A stretch of DNA of 64,000 nt from an uncultured Bacilli bacterium (GCA_958421325.1 CATZLO010000002.1:529-64528), one strand, 5' to 3'. Positions 19,984 to 56,625 are shown, counted from the first letter of the stretch. A program made the numbers and translations. Notes: a model not told the origin generated them from the letters alone.

Positions 19984-20057
19984 TGGCAGGGACATCAGGA
20001 TTTGAACCCGAATAGATGGTTTTGGAGACCACTATGTTACCATTACATCATGTCCCT
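19984..20057 (-). tRNA. trnW: tRNA-Trp (anticodon CCA), 3' CCA encoded
   Basis: Minus strand reads AGGGACA..GGTCTCCAAAACC..GGTTCAAATCC..TGTCCCTGCCA. 7-bp acceptor stem, anticodon loop CTCCAAA, T-loop GGTTCAAATCC. Confidence 0.9.
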
Positions 20058-20340: not shown

Positions 20341-20346
20341 TTTAAT

Positions 20347-20587
20347 GAAGAGGTGGACATACATTAGGATCCGGGGCATAGAAACAATGATTTTTAAATC
20401 TTCCTGCTAGGGTTTGATCATACCATGTACTAATACAGTTGTTATTTCTTCCAGGGGCATAGAACCATAAAGCATTAGTAGCAGGGTAGTAATATTCTCC
20501 TTTTAAGTTTCTTTCTGCTAGTTCTCTTTCTTTGATAGTAGAGCCTGATGTAAATTGTGGGCTGTTGATACCAGCGAAACCTCCAGG
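20347..20587 (-). pseudogene. cwlJ: cwlJ (SleB/CwlJ Hydrolase_2 family cortex-lytic enzyme), C-terminal fragment
   Basis: Minus strand reads (PGGF)AGINSPQFTSGSTIKERELAERNLKGEYYYPATNALWFYAPGRNNNCISTWYDQTLAGRFKNHCFYAPDPNVCPPLH*. It continues the N-terminal fragment at 53589-53782. Confidence 0.8.
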
Positions 20588-20606
20588 TTTTTGTTAGTTA
20601 GTACTA
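20580..20606. other. attL of the prophage (core CCTCCAGG plus phage arm TTTTTG-TTAGTTAGTACTA)
   Basis: Core at 20580-20587 is identical to 53589-53596. The 13-bp arm 20594-20606 is the exact inverted copy of 53570-53582. Confidence 0.75.
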
Positions 20607-21956
20607 TATAAAATTAACAGTTATGTTTTTGTTTTTGTCTATTGTTATATTATCAATAATACTTCGCCAAAGTCTTTGTTTTTCTACATCTGTTAAAGTG
20701 TCATAAATGGTTAAGAAATCCATTTTTAGAAACTTTTGTAGATTATCTATATTAATATTTTGCTCTTCTTGGTTCGCTTGTTCTTCTTTCTTTAACTCTT
20801 CTTTTAAATAGTTGTAGTCATTATTATACTTATCTTTGTCTATTAAATCATTAAGATATAGATCCACAAGTTTATTCATTTTATTTTTTATTTCTGTTGC
20901 TTTATTTTTTCTTGTTATCTTTTTCTTTTTATTTGCATTTAAGATATTATTTTCTGCTATTTTTAAAATATTTTCTTTTAAATAGTCCTCAATATACATT
21001 TCTGTTAATGCTGTTGTATTGATACAATTCCTTTCTACGTAGTGTTGTTTACATCTGTATATTTTTGTATAACCTGTTTTGGCACCTCTTGTTCCTCCTG
21101 CCATTTTAAAACCGCATTCTTCACATATTATTAAACCACTAAATATATAATCTCTCTTTGTGTTAGAGTTATATATTTTTATGTTTCTTTTTAATTCTTT
21201 TTGCACTCTGTAAAATTTATCTTCATCAATAATAGCAGGGCAGAAGTCTTCTATTAGTTCTTTGTTTTTAGTCGTTGTAAATTTTCCTATATATTTAGTA
21301 TCAGTAAGATAGTTTCTAATACTTCCTATACTCTTATTTCCTATATTATTTTTAAACCATTGATGAGTTTTTACTAAGCTTGATGTTTTTAAGTAGTAGT
21401 CATATAATTCATTTAATTGCTCTGCTTCTTTTTCATTAATTATAAGATGCTTATTTTTATCTATATCATAACCAAATATTTTAGCTCCTGTACAAACTGT
21501 CTTTGCAACTTTATATTTGTAGTTATTTACTCTATTAATACGTTCAGAGTCCTTATTTCTTTCGTGTTCTGCAAGGTTTACTTTAAGGTTGAATATAAAT
21601 CTACCATCAGCAGTAGAAGTGTCTATATCGTCCTCATCTATAGCTTTAAATGAAGTGTTATGTTTATCTAATTCTACTAGTAGGTTATTAGCATCTCTTA
21701 CATTTCTTGAAAACCTATCTAATTTTGTAAAAATGATTAAATCTATATTATCAAGGTCTTTAAGCAGTCTTACAAATTCTTTTCTTTTTGATATTGTTCC
21801 TGCTGATACACCTTCATCTATGTAATAGTCATATATTTTATATTTATTTCTTTTACAATATTGTGTTAAACTGTTCTTTTGATCGTCAACTGATATTCCA
21901 AACCTCTTTTGTTCTTCAGTTGATACCCGACAATATATTGCTACATTTTTAATCAT
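20604..21956 (-). CDS. Large serine recombinase (prophage integrase)
   Basis: VAIYCRVSTEEQ, LDRFSRN, recombinase domain, zinc ribbon CEECG..CKQH..C, coiled-coil C-terminus. The stop codon lies inside the att arm. Confidence 0.9.
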   Translation of the reverse strand: MIKNVAIYCRVSTEEQKRFGISVDDQKNSLTQYCKRNKYKIYDYYIDEGVSAGTISKRKEFVRLLKDLDNIDLIIFTKLDRFSRNVRDANNLLVELDKHNTSFKAIDEDDIDTSTADGRFIFNLKVNLAEHERNKDSERINRVNNYKYKVAKTVCTGAKIFGYDIDKNKHLIINEKEAEQLNELYDYYLKTSSLVKTHQWFKNNIGNKSIGSIRNYLTDTKYIGKFTTTKNKELIEDFCPAIIDEDKFYRVQKELKRNIKIYNSNTKRDYIFSGLIICEECGFKMAGGTRGAKTGYTKIYRCKQHYVERNCINTTALTEMYIEDYLKENILKIAENNILNANKKKKITRKNKATEIKNKMNKLVDLYLNDLIDKDKYNNDYNYLKEELKKEEQANQEEQNINIDNLQKFLKMDFLTIYDTLTDVEKQRLWRSIIDNITIDKNKNITVNFI

Positions 21957-49702: not shown

Positions 49703-50118
49703 ATGGCACAACACAATATATTAAAAAAAGGAAATAATATCCTAGTAGTTGATAATCCTAACAAAGAATATGAAAAATTAAAATTATATTCCAAAGAGGA
49801 AATAATTATTGGCAAATGGTTTGATGGAAAAAAATTATATAGGAAAATAGTAGATTTTGGCTCTTTTCCAAGCAATGGTCAAAGACAGTAAATCATAATA
49901 TATTAAATTTGAGCGAAATATGTTGGTTTAATTATAGTTGGTATGATACAGCTGATAATATATATTTTAATGGTCCTAGAATTGATAGTTCAGGTATTAT
50001 ATGTAAACTTGCAATTAATTATACATCATTGATTATTGAAGTTTTAGGCAATGTGGCTTGGGCAGATAGAACAACAGGAGGTAAATGTATTATTTATTAT
50101 ACTAAAACAGCTGATTAA
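49703..50118 (+). pseudogene. Tail-tip/receptor-binding candidate 3, split by a -1 frame change near 49878
   Basis: Frame 1 ends ..DFGSFPSNGQRQ* (49889-49891). The -1 frame, open from 49843, continues SKTVNHNILNLSEICWFNYSWYD.. to 50118. No slippery run at the switch point. Confidence 0.5.
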
Positions 50119-50128
50119 AGGAGGAACA

Positions 50129-50737
50129 ATGAATGAAATAATAGAAACAGCTAAAGAATTAGGCTTATTTATTGCAGAGATAATAATAGCCTTATTTGCA
50201 TGTAAAAAGTATCTAAATCAATACTTTAAAAAGACCAATGTAGGCAAAATGCTACCAAAACAGAATAAGTTAGATCTAGAAATCTTAAATAAATTAGAGT
50301 ATGTAAAAGAAATTTTAAATGCTGATAGGATTCATGTGTACGAGTTTCATAATGGAGAACATTATTCAGATAATAGACCTGCTTATAAATTTTCTTGCAC
50401 CTATGAAGTCTATAAAGCTGGTAATAAACCCATTCAGCAACAATGTAAAGGTATTGCTACAAATTGTATGCCACAATTTATTGATAGAATTACAGAAGAA
50501 GGTAAATTTGTATGTAAAGATATAGAAGAATTAAAAGAAACTATGCCAAGTACTTATAACTTTAAGAGGAGCATAGAAATTAATTCTTTTTATGATATAG
50601 CAATTCACAACAAAGAAGGTAATATTATAGGCTTTGTTGCTATTCATTGGTTTAATAAAAACAATATGGAAGTAGATAAAGATGTAATTAATCAACTAGT
50701 TTGGTATGTAGAAGAACATCTTATCAATTCCAAATAA
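50129..50737 (+). CDS. Hypothetical protein with N-terminal TM helix
   Basis: ATG 50129 follows AAGGAGGAAC. No family recognised. Confidence 0.4.
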   Translation: MNEIIETAKELGLFIAEIIIALFACKKYLNQYFKKTNVGKMLPKQNKLDLEILNKLEYVKEILNADRIHVYEFHNGEHYSDNRPAYKFSCTYEVYKAGNKPIQQQCKGIATNCMPQFIDRITEEGKFVCKDIEELKETMPSTYNFKRSIEINSFYDIAIHNKEGNIIGFVAIHWFNKNNMEVDKDVINQLVWYVEEHLINSK

Positions 50738-50756: not shown

Positions 50757-51005
50757 ATGGAAATAACTTACGTGATCATAATAGCAATAGTTGCTTACAT
50801 TTGTGGTGCTATTACTAAAATGTTTATTGAGAATGTACCTAATAAATATATACCTATTCAAAATGTAGCAGTGGGAATTGTGAGTGCATTAATTTGTTAT
50901 TTTACAGGTATTGAGCCAAACCTATTACAAGCATTGGTATTATGTATTGTAGCAACTATGGGTGCTGGTGGAATAGCAGATTTAATTAATATTAAAAATA
51001 AGTAG
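50757..51005 (+). CDS. Holin
   Basis: 82 aa, three hydrophobic segments. Lies just upstream of the lysis enzyme. Confidence 0.6.
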   Translation: MEITYVIIIAIVAYICGAITKMFIENVPNKYIPIQNVAVGIVSALICYFTGIEPNLLQALVLCIVATMGAGGIADLINIKNK

Positions 51006-51296: not shown

Positions 51297-51398
51297 ATGG
51301 CAACATTTAAAGAAGGTACAAGCCTTCCAAAAGAAGAAGCTAATTTAGAAGAAGTAAAAAATGGAATAGCTGAAGATGGAAAAGGAAGTGATGAATAA
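51297..51398 (+). CDS. Small acidic ORF (33 aa), below the track threshold
   Basis: ATG follows GAGGAGGAA. Its stop overlaps the endolysin ATG (TAATG). Confidence 0.3.
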   Translation: MATFKEGTSLPKEEANLEEVKNGIAEDGKGSDE

Positions 51399-52294
51399 TG
51401 GAAATAATCGAAATGCTAGCACCACTTGGCTATAATTGTAGATCTGGAATTTCTAGGCCTGGTTTTAAAGGTATTTCAATTCATAATACTTCTAATTGGA
51501 ATAAAGGAGCAAATGCAATAGCTCACGCAAATTTATTAAGAGGTTCTTGGAAAAACAATTATACTTCTTGGAATTATGTAGTAGATCAAGATCGAGCAGT
51601 TAGATGCGTTCCTGAAAATGAAGTTGCATGGTGTCAAGGGGACGGCAGAGGAGATGGAAATATGAAAACTATTTCTATTGAAATTTGTGATAATTCTGAT
51701 GGCGATATTAAAAAAGCAACTGATAATGCAGTAGAGCTTTGTGCTGAAATTTTAAAAAGATATGGTGTAAAAAATGCAAGTAGTTATTTATTTCAACACA
51801 ATCATTGGACTGGTAAAGACTGCCCTTACGATATAAGAAGAGGAAATCCTTATGACTGGAACACTTTTGTTTCTAAAGTACAAGAAAAATTAAATGGAAG
51901 TTCATCTAGTATTAGTAATAGTGCAGATCAAGTGTTAACAGTAGGATCTAAAGTAAGATTCAACGGAGTATTCAAAGTAAATGAATTAATACTTCCTAAC
52001 AACAAATATCCTAATGGAGCTATTGGATGTTATGTGACTTGCTATGGTTCTCCTTGTGGGGTTGATGATTATATTCCGAGTGGACCTATTGCTAAATGTG
52101 ATGCTAATGGAAATAATGCTAACTATAATGCAATTCTAAAAAATGGAGATTATTGGAAATGTGATAAAGAGTTCACAGTAATAGGAATAGAATTACCTAC
52201 TAAATATCTAAAGAATGGAGTAGCAATACTAGAAGCAGACGGTGTAAGATTTAGATGTGATTGCGGTCCTTTATATGAAGTATCTAATAATTAA
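51398..52294 (+). CDS. Endolysin: N-acetylmuramoyl-L-alanine amidase (Amidase_2/PGRP) with C-terminal binding domain
   Basis: GISIHNT..AHANLL..SWNYVVDQDRAV.CVPE..AWCQGDG..ISIEICDN. Confidence 0.85.
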   Translation: MEIIEMLAPLGYNCRSGISRPGFKGISIHNTSNWNKGANAIAHANLLRGSWKNNYTSWNYVVDQDRAVRCVPENEVAWCQGDGRGDGNMKTISIEICDNSDGDIKKATDNAVELCAEILKRYGVKNASSYLFQHNHWTGKDCPYDIRRGNPYDWNTFVSKVQEKLNGSSSSISNSADQVLTVGSKVRFNGVFKVNELILPNNKYPNGAIGCYVTCYGSPCGVDDYIPSGPIAKCDANGNNANYNAILKNGDYWKCDKEFTVIGIELPTKYLKNGVAILEADGVRFRCDCGPLYEVSNN

Positions 52295-52341: not shown

Positions 52342-52794
52342 TTATTTATAATTACTGATTAGTTCTTCGTAATCTTTATAAGTAATATATCCATCTGCTA
52401 CTTGCTCATCTTTATCATCAAATACTGATATGTAAGCATAAGTATGGTCATCTAATACTGTAGTATTAAAGCTACCATCTTCTAACTCATAATATTTTTC
52501 TAATAATGTATCTTGAGTAGAGTAGTGACCTGCAGAGAAGTCTTCTCTAAAATTTTCTTTCTCTTCTACTTCATTTCTTTTTAAAAAGTTAATTACATCA
52601 AATTTATTCATCATAATCTTTATTCCTTTCTTAAATTCATAAATACTTTGTTTTAGAAAGTCTGTTTTTGTTATATTTTCTCTTTCTAAAAGTTTATCTA
52701 AGCTTTCTTTTTCTTCAATTTTTAACTTTGCTTTAAATTGACTATAATGTTCTTTTTCATAATTATTGTCATATTCTCTTTTATTAAAAGCCAT
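52342..52794 (-). CDS. Hypothetical protein (basic N-terminal helix region, acidic C-terminal half)
   Basis: Second gene of the minus-strand operon at the prophage right end. Confidence 0.4.
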   Translation of the reverse strand: MAFNKREYDNNYEKEHYSQFKAKLKIEEKESLDKLLERENITKTDFLKQSIYEFKKGIKIMMNKFDVINFLKRNEVEEKENFREDFSAGHYSTQDTLLEKYYELEDGSFNTTVLDDHTYAYISVFDDKDEQVADGYITYKDYEELISNYK

Positions 52795-52796
52795 AT

Positions 52797-53075
52797 TTAC
52801 ACCTCACTTTTAAAGAAATTCTCTTTTTCTTCATAATCTAAGTCTCTAAATTCTTTAACACTTATACTCTTTAAAGTATTCCAGTTATAATTATCTTCAT
52901 CTTCTGTAGTTACTTTAGATAGAGTATACACATGCTCTTTATTAACCTTATACATATAACTACTTTCATCTTCTAAAGTCTTCCTTAAATCTTCTAATGC
53001 TTCTTCATAACTATTATATTCATTACCTCCGTTGAAACTTCCTTCTTCTTCTACTACATAAAATTCTCTTTCCAT
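52797..53075 (-). CDS. Small strongly acidic protein
   Basis: ATG 53075 follows GAGGAAGG (the track ORF starts at 53105). E/D-rich 92-aa product. Confidence 0.4.
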   Translation of the reverse strand: MEREFYVVEEEGSFNGGNEYNSYEEALEDLRKTLEDESSYMYKVNKEHVYTLSKVTTEDEDNYNWNTLKSISVKEFRDLDYEEKENFFKSEV

Positions 53076-53108
53076 TTTTCCTTCCTCACTTTCTAAATTT
53101 CTCATAAT

Positions 53109-53230
53109 TTGACAAGTGATAATTTTCTATGTTATATTATTAGCGAAGAGGAGCATTAGCTCCATCTTCTCGAATGTTTAGTGACTTTATGTTTTCGGTT
53201 TATCTGAAAATGTAAGGTCACTTTTATTTT
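53109..53230 (+). ncRNA. Candidate antisense sRNA (promoter to intrinsic terminator)
   Basis: TTGACA (53109-53114), 18 nt, TATATT (53133-53138). 17-bp stem 53180-53196 / 53206-53222 (3 G-U pairs), then TTTATTTT. No plus-strand ORF. Confidence 0.45.
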
Positions 53231-53254
53231 CCATAATACTATAGAAAATTTCAC
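53156..53254 (-). CDS. Small basic ORF (32 aa) at the head of the moron operon
   Basis: AAAGGAGGA, 6 nt, GTG. Product MKFSIVLWKIKVTLHFQINRKHKVTKHSRRWS. Almost fully overlapped by the antisense candidate. Confidence 0.3.
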   Translation of the reverse strand: MKFSIVLWKIKVTLHFQINRKHKVTKHSRRWS

Positions 53255-53278
53255 TTTTCTTCCTCCTTTCATGATAAT

Positions 53279-53308
53279 AGTATACAACAACTAGGTACCT
53301 AGTGTCAA
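53279..53308 (-). promoter_or_regulatory. Promoter of the moron operon with a 12-bp palindrome in the spacer
   Basis: Minus strand: TTGACA (53308-53303), 18-nt spacer containing CTAGGTACCTAG (53291-53302), TATACT (53284-53279). Confidence 0.5.
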
Positions 53309-53569
53309 TAAGTTTTTAGAAAAATGTTGATTTTTTTTAAAATTTATTTTATACTCTAATTACTTTATAATATTTGATTCAGACAAATTGATTAAAGTGA
53401 TACAGTGCTACAATTGTTCTTTTTAATTCTATGTCTTCTTAAATGGTTGTAGCGAGTTGTGTTTTTCCAATATTATATTAATTGACAGAGTCATATGAAT
53501 ATAGCTCACCCCTAAAAAAATAACTAGGTCTATAACCTAGTTTTCTTTATATAATGGTATGCCTTTTTG

Positions 53570-53596
53570 TAGTACTAACTAATAAAAGCCTCCAGG
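53570..53596. other. attR of the prophage (phage arm TAGTACTAACTAA-TAAAAG plus core CCTCCAGG)
   Basis: Exact inverted copy of the attL arm. Identical 8-bp core. Confidence 0.75.
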
Positions 53597-53782
53597 ATTT
53601 TGATAAACCATTTTAGTAATAGTATTTATATTTCTAAAAGTATAGCAGTTAGCAAGTACTCTATTTACGCCAACATTACCTACCATAAGCATACCGTATT
53701 CTCCTTCGCCTACTGCTTCGGCTCGCATTAGTCTTGCTAATAAATCTAATTCTTTACTTGTATATTGAACTACTTGAGACAT
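53589..53782 (-). pseudogene. cwlJ: cwlJ, N-terminal fragment
   Basis: MSQVVQYTSKELDLLARLMRAEAVGEGEYGMLMVGNVGVNRVLANCYTFRNINTITKMVYQNPGGF, then phage-derived Y*. The LARLxRAEA.GEG..GM..VGNV..NR block is typical of CwlJ/SleB. Confidence 0.8.
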
Positions 53783-55172: not shown

Positions 55173-56625
55173 TGAACTGAACCCCAAAAGTTGGACAGTT
55201 TATAAATAGCTTCTAATAAGAGGATTGTAGCCTGTAATTTACAGGAGACAGTCCTTTTAATTTCACTTTAATTCTATCATGATTATAATAATAAATATAG
55301 TCATTTATCGCAATTATTAAATCATCAATAGTTTTGTAGTTATTTTCTTGGTCATAAAACATTTTTGTTTTTAAGAGTCCAAAAAAGTTTTCCATTAATC
55401 CATTATACATACTATTACCTTTTCTGGACATGCTTTGTTTAATACCTTTATTTTTTAATTGTTTTTGATAAGACTGATGTTGATATTGCCATCCTTGATC
55501 TGAATGAAATATTAAATCTTCTAAATCTTTATCATCTGTTTTACAAAATGCTTTATTAAGCATATCATTTATTTGTTCTAAATTAGGAGACTTAGAAATA
55601 TTATGAGAAATTACTTCCTGATTAAATCCATCAATTATTGGAGATAAATAAATTTTTTCTCCACGTAAGTTAAATTCAGTTACATCGGTATACCATTTTT
55701 CATTTGGTTTATCTGCTTCAAAATCTCTTTCAATAAGATTATCAGCAATTTTTCCAACTGTTCCCTTATAAGAAGAATATTTTCTTTTATTCCTTTTTAA
55801 TGGCTTTAATCCTAATTTAACCATTATTCTATAAACCTTCTTATGGTTTACATCATATCCTTGATTTCTTAATTCTAAAGTAATTCTACGATAGCCATAT
55901 CTTTCTTTATGTTGCAAGAATATTTCTTTTATCTTATCTATAATTTCTTTATTTTTATCATCTTTATCTGTTTTAGATAAAGTATAATAATATACTGATT
56001 TAGCTAAACCAGAAATACTAAGAAGAATCTTTAAGGGATATATTAGCCGAAGTTCACTAACAACACTTACTTTTTCTTCTGTTGTCGATTCTTCCTTGCC
56101 TGAACAACGGCTCTCAATTTTTTTGAGTATTCTAGCTCAGCTTTCAAATATAAATTTTCTTTTTTTAATCTTTCAACTTCTTCTTCAATAGTTTCAGATT
56201 TTTTAGCTTCTTTTGGCTTCTTCATAATAGTTGGACTCCTTCCACGTTTTCGTTCAACTATATTATAACCGTTTTCTTTATATTTTTTAATCCAATTATG
56301 CAACATTCCATCACTTAATAAGCCGATGTCTATAGCAACAGCTTGAATTGGTTCATTATCTATTAAAACTCTATTTATTGCTTCTTCTTTAAATTGTCTT
56401 GGATATTCTTTATTTTTGGTTGTTCTAAGAATATCAAACCCATGTTTATCTATTAGCCATACTAAATATTGAATATTGTGTTTAGTCATCCCATATTTGG
56501 ATTGTAAAATTTTTAAAGTTTCTCTTTCTTTTCTTTTGTTATATATTTCTATTTTCTCTTCATAATTAAATTTTGACATATAAAAACCTCGTTTCTATTT
56601 TGTCCAAGAAACGGGGTTCATATCA
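55173..56625 (-). mobile_element. IS3-family insertion sequence, apparently intact, with 3-bp target duplication CTA
   Basis: Ends TGAACTGAACCCC..TTGGACA / TGTCCAA..GGGGTTCATATCA (TG..CA). CTA at 55170-55172 and 56626-56628. 1453 bp. Confidence 0.85.
55213..56579 (-). CDS. IS3 transposase OrfA/OrfAB (-1 frameshift near the orfA stop)
   Basis: orfA 56067-56579 (HTH, leucine zipper). The orfB frame is open from about 56085 and carries the DDE region (..WYTDVTEF.., ..HSDQGWQY.., ..ENFFGLLK..). AAGAAAAAG at the orfA end. Confidence 0.85.

Follow-up and report, generated by a model that had tools for sequence, protein, structure and literature searches.

Organization of the locus

We analysed a 64,000-nucleotide (nt) stretch of DNA from an uncultured Bacilli bacterium (GCA_958421325.1 CATZLO010000002.1:529-64528; the whole stretch, numbered from its first letter, is called the window) which carries, close to the right end of a prophage, a predicted antisense small RNA (sRNA) gene facing a short open reading frame (ORF) in the leader of two further genes. 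Judged by comparison with related loci, the antisense RNA and the ORF that it overlaps are a real, conserved and previously undescribed control cassette, located ahead of a gene for a probable ribbon-helix-helix (RHH) protein at the prophage end. In its design the cassette resembles plasmid copy-control circuits or a type I toxin-antitoxin (TA) pair. Its elements and the genes behind it are listed below (aa, amino acids; MFE, minimum free energy; SD, Shine-Dalgarno sequence).

53109-53138, plus strand: antisense promoter P(+), with TTGACA at 53109-53114, a spacer of 18 nt and TATATT at 53133-53138; TG at -15/-14 (TGn extended -10); scanner score 11/12
53145-53230, plus strand: predicted sRNA of ~86 nt, with inferred ends, covering the 5' hairpin, a 10-nt linker, the terminator stem-loop and the U-run
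53145-53169, plus strand: 5' hairpin of the sRNA, 25 nt
53180-53222, plus strand: terminator stem-loop of the sRNA, 19 pairs (53180-53198 / 53204-53222) with a loop of 5 and four G·U pairs; TTTTATTTT comes next
53223-53230, plus strand: U-run of the sRNA
53279-53308, minus strand: sense promoter P(-), with TTGACA at 53308-53303, a spacer of 18 nt and TATACT at 53284-53279; score 11/12; conserved among relatives
53291-53302, no strand assigned: perfect palindrome CTAGGTACCTAG within the P(-) spacer, a putative RHH operator
53262-53269, minus strand: SD AAAGGAGG, 7 nt 5' of the GTG
53156-53254, minus strand: 32-codon leader ORF from the GTG at 53254 to the TAA at 53158-53156, encoding the peptide MKFSIVLWKIKVTLHFQINRKHKVTKHSRRWS
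53232-53275, minus strand: 5' strand of a long-range leader helix in the MFE fold, comprising the mRNA 5' end, the GTG start and the first 7 codons, with the SD in an internal loop
53101-53141, minus strand: 3' strand of the same helix in the MFE fold, coinciding with the spacer and -35 element of P(+) and ending at a relic ATG (53105-53103)
52797-53075, minus strand: gene for a 92-aa acidic protein, with its own SD; optional cargo
52342-52794, minus strand: gene for a 150-aa protein with a predicted N-terminal RHH domain (~residues 1-60) and a variable C-terminal extension; putative autorepressor

An earlier note on this stretch had described the two promoters, the hairpin, the palindrome, the SD and the 32-codon ORF with its peptide, and each of them was found where it had been placed. 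The stem, given there as 17 bp with three G-U pairs, is the same stem, which our scan extends by the last two pairs to 19 pairs with four G·U. The purine-rich SD stretch AAAGGAGGA spans 53269-61 and is followed by six nucleotides and the GTG at 53254. Of the 99 bases of the leader ORF, 75 are overlapped by the predicted sRNA, which is perfectly complementary to codons 9-32 and to 11 nt beyond, and the mRNA counterpart of the sRNA 5' hairpin carries the stop codon of the ORF in its loop. The first gene 3' of the leader starts at the ATG at 53075 and encodes 92 aa, which is the length of every homologue and corrects a 102-aa reading from 53105.

Promoter-like sites scoring at least 11/12 number 8 in the window (GC 27%), against 6.5 ± 2.4 expected, and are thus not enriched. 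Since such matches occur at chance frequency, the motifs by themselves prove little, and the case rests on comparison. The 5' hairpin motif occurs a single time in the window, with 0 occurrences expected by chance.

Conservation of the cassette across relatives

Relatives were gathered through homologues of the two downstream proteins, through DNA-pattern scans, and through a scan of IMG/VR with an alignment of the RHH domain. Only this N-terminal RHH alignment reached farther into IMG/VR than the whole-protein scans; scanned singly against IMG/VR, the 92-aa and 150-aa proteins gave no relatives. The DNA-pattern scan of genomes returned 20 hits, 6 of them true and the others chance matches of high GC content, and the scan of metagenomes returned four, one of them true and identical to the remnant at locus L024 described below (loci are designated by L numbers). 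The region had no blastn match among 50,697 phage records, and no Rfam family reached its gathering score there when both gathering and permissive thresholds were used (best E ~1-5). A homology search with the leader peptide, run as a 44-aa version, found no shared words.

Prophages and phage contigs from uncultured gut Bacilli of low GC content yielded approximately 20 distinct versions of the cassette, although many of the loci are close kin, so that counts of variants exceed the number of independent events. The named hosts are uncultured gut Bacilli or 'Tenericutes' metagenome-assembled genomes and Candidatus Onthousia. All versions have the same layout, consisting of TTGACA, a palindrome-bearing spacer, TATAAT or TATACT, an SD, the ORF and the antisense promoter. 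A strong SD is found 6-9 nt ahead of the start codon in 14 of the 14 module variants examined, and the leader ORF is 30-35 codons long (37 and 41 codons in two odd versions), with its TAA stop in a hairpin loop across the cassette versions. The next ATG lies 41-76 nt past the leader stop, and in 10 of 14 modules the distance is 48-56 nt. The sRNA, comprising 5' hairpin, terminator and U-run, varies in length between 85 and 97 nt across the family. Within this same RNA scaffold four unrelated kinds of leader peptide occur: basic 32-mers, basic 33-34-mers, an acidic 37-mer and a transmembrane (TM) 41-mer. The cassette is optional; it is missing from five loci (L048, L070, L071, L075 and L076) in which the same promoter, operator and RHH gene are present.

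Two sets of loci are unusual. L050 (2805-2930) and L051 (370-495) have the promoter, operator and SD as in L028, but the slot is taken by an unrelated 41-aa ORF, MLKNFYEYFGLDELIKFEKFKKLAIFIAVEYLVFAIIMLAW, with a C-terminal TM segment; an antisense promoter of its own (TTTACT, 17 nt, TAAAAT, with TG) is present in the slot, as is a long stem with a U-run behind it. L024 (~440-570) and L045 (~2300-2450), from Candidatus Onthousia faecigallinarum, carry a decayed cassette adjoining a tRNA gene. The sense promoter and SD are deleted, the GTG start has become GTA, a frameshift disrupts the ORF and a premature stop interrupts the RHH gene; neither the sRNA gene, which scores 89 bits with the covariance model, nor its promoter is damaged.

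A generic promoter-SD pattern run on IMG/VR brought up unrelated loci. In L055, L056, L065 and L057, unrelated IMG/VR phage contigs with a GC content of 45-54%, TTGACA...TATACT is followed by AATATCAGAAAGGAGG and then by an ORF of 38-44 aa. These ORFs have a basic N-terminus and a TM segment, with a GC-rich hairpin after them, and represent small membrane peptides under consensus promoters.

The antisense RNA gene

The plus-strand RNA of the window folds at -38.5 kcal/mol (z = -8.4 against shuffled sequences). A covariance model made from 12 close variants also picks up three distant variants, with E values of 4e-4 to 5e-3, and in total matches 15 loci (E values from 6e-20 to 5e-3). In the alignment of these 15 sequences 95.6% of the cells are paired, 11 of the 23 pairs have changes on both sides, and 0 of 500 shuffles were as good, but the alignment was fitted to the model and the pairing and covariation figures are therefore somewhat inflated. 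When the partner registers are slid, pairing drops to 35-54%. RNAalifold, applied to an independent MAFFT alignment, identifies three compensatory pairs.

The wobble pairs indicate which strand carries the selected fold. There are 31 G·U pairs on the sRNA strand versus 4 A·C (equivalent to G·U on the mRNA strand), and from this asymmetry we conclude that the fold is selected on the sRNA strand. The sRNA strand is also the one with the more stable fold in 13 of the 15 sequences.

P(+) is kept in all variants despite sequence change. Its -35 element is TTGACA or TTTACA, the spacer 17-18 nt and the -10 element TATATT, TAAAAT, TAAATT, TATAAT or TAATAT, mostly with TG, and it is invariably positioned 6-7 nt upstream of the 5' hairpin. 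That hairpin is the most conserved segment of the cassette and is unchanged in all 12 of the closest variants. The B-type, acidic and TM versions have the same design of 5' hairpin, terminator and U-run, in unrelated sequence. P(+) has no operator and is therefore probably constitutive. The conserved promoter, 5' hairpin, terminator and U-run, along with a fold selected on the plus strand, bear out the plus-strand sRNA gene that the earlier note had predicted, and we consider this gene real in the evolutionary sense.

The leader ORF and its peptide

Comparison of the variants also indicates that the leader ORF is translated, as the earlier note had supposed. The SD is kept while the start codon swaps among GTG, ATG and TTG across the family. 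The leader frame is open in 12 of 12 close variants, including one from which 6 nt have been deleted in frame, and the other two sense frames hold 1-6 stops. The constraint is frame-specific: the pooled ratio of non-synonymous to synonymous changes (pN/pS) is 0.33 in the leader frame, whereas the two remaining sense frames give 0.76 and 1.15 and the antisense frames 0.5-1.2.

Most of the conserved residues of the peptide match constraints on the RNA, KIK corresponding to the U-run, K[VI]T to the stem, and RRWS-stop to the 5' hairpin. In codons that fall in RNA loops or linkers the amino acids vary freely. Several of the compensatory changes in the stem fall on synonymous third positions in both arms.

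The window peptide has a net charge of +9, a grand average of hydropathy of -0.56 and a best 19-residue Kyte-Doolittle mean (KD19) of 0.67, with no TM segment. From its sequence it looks like an amphipathic β-strand. The earlier note's description of a basic peptide rather than a clear TM toxin is thus accurate, whereas its filing of the locus as type I TA-like is not supported, as the defining hydrophobic membrane toxin is absent. For the 41-aa peptide of L050/L051 the best KD19 is 2.46, corresponding to a TM segment.

The RHH gene, its putative operator and the 92-aa gene

The RHH gene is the constant gene downstream of the cassette, and its N-terminal ~60 residues align across all loci. Relatives of the 150-aa protein are RHH-only proteins of 61-70 aa. 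One of them, the 62-aa orthologue in L028, has weak matches to RepA2/CopB PRK13702 (E = 1e-4), RepB-RCR_reg (1.4e-3) and RHH_1 (0.04), all below the curated cut-offs. The 150-aa protein of the window has no significant match to a hidden Markov model, and its AlphaFold2 (AF2) model is poor (predicted local distance difference test, pLDDT, 43).

The core of the palindrome in P(-) co-varies with the predicted β-strand of the RHH domain in more than 20 loci (the code being read from L028, L032, L034, L048, L050, L069-L079 and L082), which fall into four classes.

FKAKL with GGTACC
FKVDL with CGTAC(G)
FN[VT]DL with CCTAGG
FKTEL with AGTACT

L022 and L023 are exceptions to this pairing, with an FNTDL-type RHH protein and a different upstream region. 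The co-variation suggests RHH autorepression, and we regard it as good indirect evidence that the RHH protein represses its own promoter via the palindrome. A search of the 64-kb window for the palindrome with up to 2 mismatches found the promoter copy only and no further RHH operator. A role of the RHH protein as recombination directionality factor or excisionase was considered and set aside, because members of this one RHH family adjoin serine recombinases in some loci and tyrosine recombinases in others.

In at least six lineages (L022/32/34, L069, L072/77/79/82, L073, L074 and L078) the RHH gene lies directly behind the cassette and lacks an SD. In the five cassette-less loci an SD precedes the RHH gene in four or five.

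The 92-aa gene is absent from most modules, which consist of the leader ORF and the RHH gene only, and in L022 and L032 it is placed after the RHH gene. In all window-type loci the ATG at 53103-53105 is in frame, and in alignments its counterpart in other loci is the SD-less RHH start ATGGAAAAATTTAAT. We interpret this ATG as a relic of the RHH start, marking the point at which the 92-aa gene and its SD were inserted. A recombination junction in L008 is located at the same spot as the relic ATG. These comparisons indicate that the 92-aa 'moron' gene was inserted later.

The AF2 model of the 92-aa protein (pLDDT 84) has no PDB or BFVD match at E <= 0.001 (best BFVD E = 0.016), with TM-scores all <= 0.53. 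Neither the 92-aa nor the 150-aa protein belongs to a PADLOC, PHROG or NCBIfam family, and the 92-aa protein has no Pfam match either. No Rep domain was found in the downstream genes; the controlled gene is not a replication initiator.

The long-range leader helix

The leader mRNA is predicted to form a long-range helix, in which the mRNA 5' end and the first 4-8 leader codons pair with a segment ~110 nt downstream, just 5' of the next gene. The DNA of the downstream segment doubles as P(+). The helix has an RNAduplex energy of -21.4 kcal/mol (z = -4.3), and its pairing is kept in relatives despite different sequences and registers. In the folding model, the start codon of the leader ORF is buried by this helix.

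Prophage setting

A 33-kb prophage (~20580-53596) contains the cassette, 290 bp in from its right end, and also the following genes, apart from those described above.

20604-21956, minus strand: serine recombinase
50757-51005: holin
51398-52294: Amidase_2 endolysin

The prophage interrupts a gene for a SleB/CwlJ-like cell-wall hydrolase (Pfam Hydrolase_2) at an 8-bp core, CCTGGAGG, copies of which are present at 20580-20587 and 53589-53596. The N-terminal 67 codons of the hydrolase lie at 53579-53782 and the C-terminal part at ~20345-20580, both on the minus strand and in frame across the core. The phage-side arms are inverted repeats (TAGTACTAACTAA...). By analogy, this placement resembles that of the 'intervening elements' of sporulation genes.

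The hairpin AACTAGGTCTATAACCTAGTT (53522-53542), between the cassette promoter and the right attachment site attR, has an A-run on one side and a T-run on the other and receives a terminator score on either strand. A 228-aa membrane protein (50051-50737; phrog_14038), encoded just upstream of the holin gene, has a weak match to SpoIISA_toxin (E = 0.007, below cut-off). A tRNA-Trp(CCA) gene is present ~520 bp left of the left junction (19984-20057, minus strand), and an IS3-family transposase gene with rve domains 1.6 kb right of the prophage (55213-55917, minus strand). In four relatives (L001 3796-4840, L007 1755-2886, L011 3522-4903 and L048 3643-4687) a SocA_Panacea-domain gene and a partner of 148-253 aa lie between the lysis genes and the cassette. 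By their sequences they look like a Panacea-type TA pair; the window contains no SocA_Panacea pair.

Proposed mechanism and alternatives

We hypothesize that the cassette exerts cis-antisense (countertranscript) control over a translated leader ORF in an RHH-autorepressed prophage operon, a reading to which we assign, partly by analogy, a probability of roughly 0.45. Upon entry into a naive cell P(-) would fire, the leader ORF would be translated co-transcriptionally, and the downstream genes would be expressed, these being the genes for the 92-aa protein and the RHH protein in the window and the SD-less RHH gene alone in most relatives. The RHH protein would then bind the palindrome and close P(-), and the constitutive sRNA would pair with leftover leader RNA over ~86 bp. 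Pairing would halt the passage of ribosomes along the leader ORF and/or trigger cleavage by RNase III, leading to post-transcriptional silencing, and convergent transcription may cause mutual interference of P(+) and P(-). The leader ORF would act mainly in cis, with its translation opening the leader and licensing the gene behind it, in the manner of tap (R1) and repY (ColIb-P9). We favour this reading because the RNA layout is constant with four unrelated kinds of peptide, one of them acidic, because the stop-to-ATG geometry is kept, and because an RHH gene directly behind the cassette usually lacks an SD.

Several observations weigh against it. The sRNA ends ~22 nt past the start codon and cannot occlude the SD or start directly, so it must block elongation or prompt RNase III cleavage. 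For classical coupling, ~50 nt from the leader stop to the next ATG is a long distance, and L028 and L050 carry the cassette yet have an RHH gene with an SD. In the window, both downstream genes have their own SDs, making coupling unnecessary there, and the cassette is conserved nonetheless. The RHH ATG is unpaired in most MFE folds, and within the window the sole putative operator for the RHH protein is the one in its own promoter. Finally, the pN/pS of 0.33 in the leader frame suggests some constraint on the peptide sequence.

The earlier note had proposed either an antisense-regulated small peptide or an attenuator. Comparative evidence supports an sRNA gene over a translated ORF, whereas attenuation in the strict sense was rejected, since the sense strand of the leader has no terminator-like structure.

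The main alternative, a strong rival though less probable, is that the leader of the RHH operon contains a type I TA pair, in which the 32-aa peptide would be the toxin, perhaps a non-membrane cationic one, and the 86-nt RNA the antitoxin. The sRNA would promote RNase III decay, the long-range helix would keep the full-length mRNA translationally inert, and the pair might stabilise the prophage or abort infection. The layout is Firmicute-like, with convergent promoters, overlap of the 3' part of the ORF, a free SD and a start buried by intramolecular pairing. Polycistronic mRNAs can encode such toxins, as in yonT/SR6 (PMC5848175), and Clostridioides difficile has prophage type I TAs (PMC7699646). 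However, the hydrophobic helix typical of type I toxins (PMC6563280) is missing from the window peptide and from types A to C, and one variant is acidic; the TM 41-aa peptide of L050/L051, which has its own antisense promoter and terminator in the same slot, speaks for a toxin. Purifying selection on the leader frame also argues for a toxin, but most of the conserved residues are accounted for by the constraints on the sRNA. Absence of the cassette from the five cassette-less loci is expected of a selfish insert, which on the other hand does not explain the RHH genes that lack an SD behind the cassette. L024/L045, having lost the sense promoter, SD and start and kept the sRNA gene, display the pattern of an orphan antitoxin, although this decayed copy is a single example.

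We think it quite unlikely that a single SD is shared by the start of the leader ORF and the SD-less RHH ATG, with the helix hiding the former and bringing the SD beside the latter. Binding of the sRNA or translation of the leader would then open the helix and let the SD serve the leader ORF, and the sRNA would switch ribosomes between peptide and repressor; in addition, it might act in trans as an immunity determinant against related incoming phages. Across the base of the helix, the SD and this ATG are separated by 7 nt in the window and by 1-4 nt in L022 and L034. As the spacing ranges from 1 to 18 nt between variants, such a split SD is a long shot.

It appears decidedly improbable that the main role of the sRNA lies in trans, where it would serve immunity or incompatibility, a resident prophage using it to silence the leader of related incoming phages, with the ORF as a mere target. 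The remnant with a dead ORF and RHH gene, in which the promoter and fold of the sRNA gene are intact, would be in line with such a role, as would the operator-free and hence probably constitutive P(+), and the extreme conservation of the 5' hairpin beside variable linker and loop sequences that could set specificity. The remnant is, however, one locus, and silencing of the operon is not known to harm an incoming phage. A role in trans is moreover not exclusive of countertranscript control or a type I TA pair, and is compatible with either.

That the hairpin is only a terminator or insulator against late transcription running on from the lysis genes, or serves merely to stabilise the minus-strand mRNA, with promoters and ORF arising by chance in AT-rich DNA, is very improbable: the near-chance number of consensus promoters (8 versus 6.5) and the GC content of 27% would allow it, but the hexamers, spacing and TG of P(+) survive sequence turnover in ~20 variants, the SD and start are kept while the start codon itself changes, the coding signal is frame-specific, and the G·U asymmetry excludes an element of the minus strand only.

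Countertranscript control of the leader ORF, if correct, would make the cassette a compact, portable module of repressor operator, translated leader ORF, countertranscript and convergent promoters, conserved in temperate phages of uncultured gut Bacilli, with hosts of the Candidatus Onthousia / 'Tenericutes' UMGS type. The predicted sRNA should be abundant and should show in gut metatranscriptomes. The four β-strand variants and four operator cores constitute an apparent RHH recognition code, and the unrelated peptides in one RNA scaffold offer a natural series with which a peptide acting as toxin could be separated from translation acting as signal. Should the peptide prove toxic, type I TA toxins would extend to short cationic non-membrane peptides.

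Comparison with known systems

Modules composed of repressor-operator, leader ORF and countertranscript are textbook plasmid replication control. The copB/copA/tap-repA region of plasmid R1 (IncFII) resembles the cassette in having a structured cis-antisense RNA of ~90 nt, made from a constitutive promoter inside the leader (PMC5717011). R1 also has a short translated leader ORF needed by the next gene, a dependence that is proposed for the cassette as well, and a small auxiliary repressor of the sense promoter; the RHH protein of L028 weakly matches the RepA2/CopB model. In contrast to R1, the gene behind the leader is a putative repressor gene with or without cargo, not that of a replication initiator, the leader stop and the next start are ~50 nt apart instead of overlapping, the antisense RNA spans the body of the ORF and not the region beside its ribosome-binding site, and the element is a prophage.

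The copG-repB/RNAII system of pMV158 is a Gram-positive case of dual control, in which the RHH repressor CopG acts on a palindromic operator in the sense promoter and a small antisense RNA with an intrinsic terminator is made from a convergent promoter (PMC5717011). It differs from the cassette in that it has no leader ORF and in that its RNAII is aimed at the translation start of repB. CopR/RNAIII of pIP501 (inc18), a related Gram-positive system, works by transcription attenuation, whereas the cassette has no sense-strand terminator.

The type I TAs of Firmicute prophages (among them txpA/RatA, bsrG/SR4, yonT/SR6 and CD0977.1/RCd11 of C. difficile) are likewise prophage-borne, with a convergent sRNA of ~100 nt over the 3' part of the ORF (PMC5848175, PMC7699646, PMC6563280). 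Masking of initiation by mRNA structure and the polycistronic arrangement of yonT are further similarities. Unlike in these systems, the peptide is non-hydrophobic with a charge of +9, the ORF lies in the leader of a repressor-controlled RHH operon, and peptides carried by the same scaffold are unrelated. The examples from skin and SPbeta serve as analogies only, since the host is an uncultured low-GC gut Bacilli and not Bacillus subtilis.

In the immI region of phage P22 (Pant-arc-ant, sar RNA), the RHH autorepressor Arc acts on a strong promoter, and the small convergent antisense RNA sar is made inside the operon. Expression is a transient burst after infection, and sar pairs with the ribosome-binding site of ant. 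The temperate phage context, an RHH autorepressor (putative in the case of the cassette) and the convergent antisense RNA within the operon are common to both; P22 has no leader ORF, and nothing Ant-like is present in the cassette region. For silencing in trans, c4 RNA of P1/P7 and the Inc RNAs of plasmids provide precedents. What is new here, as far as comparison of sequences can tell, is a known design of antisense control in the form of an undescribed variant carried by prophages.

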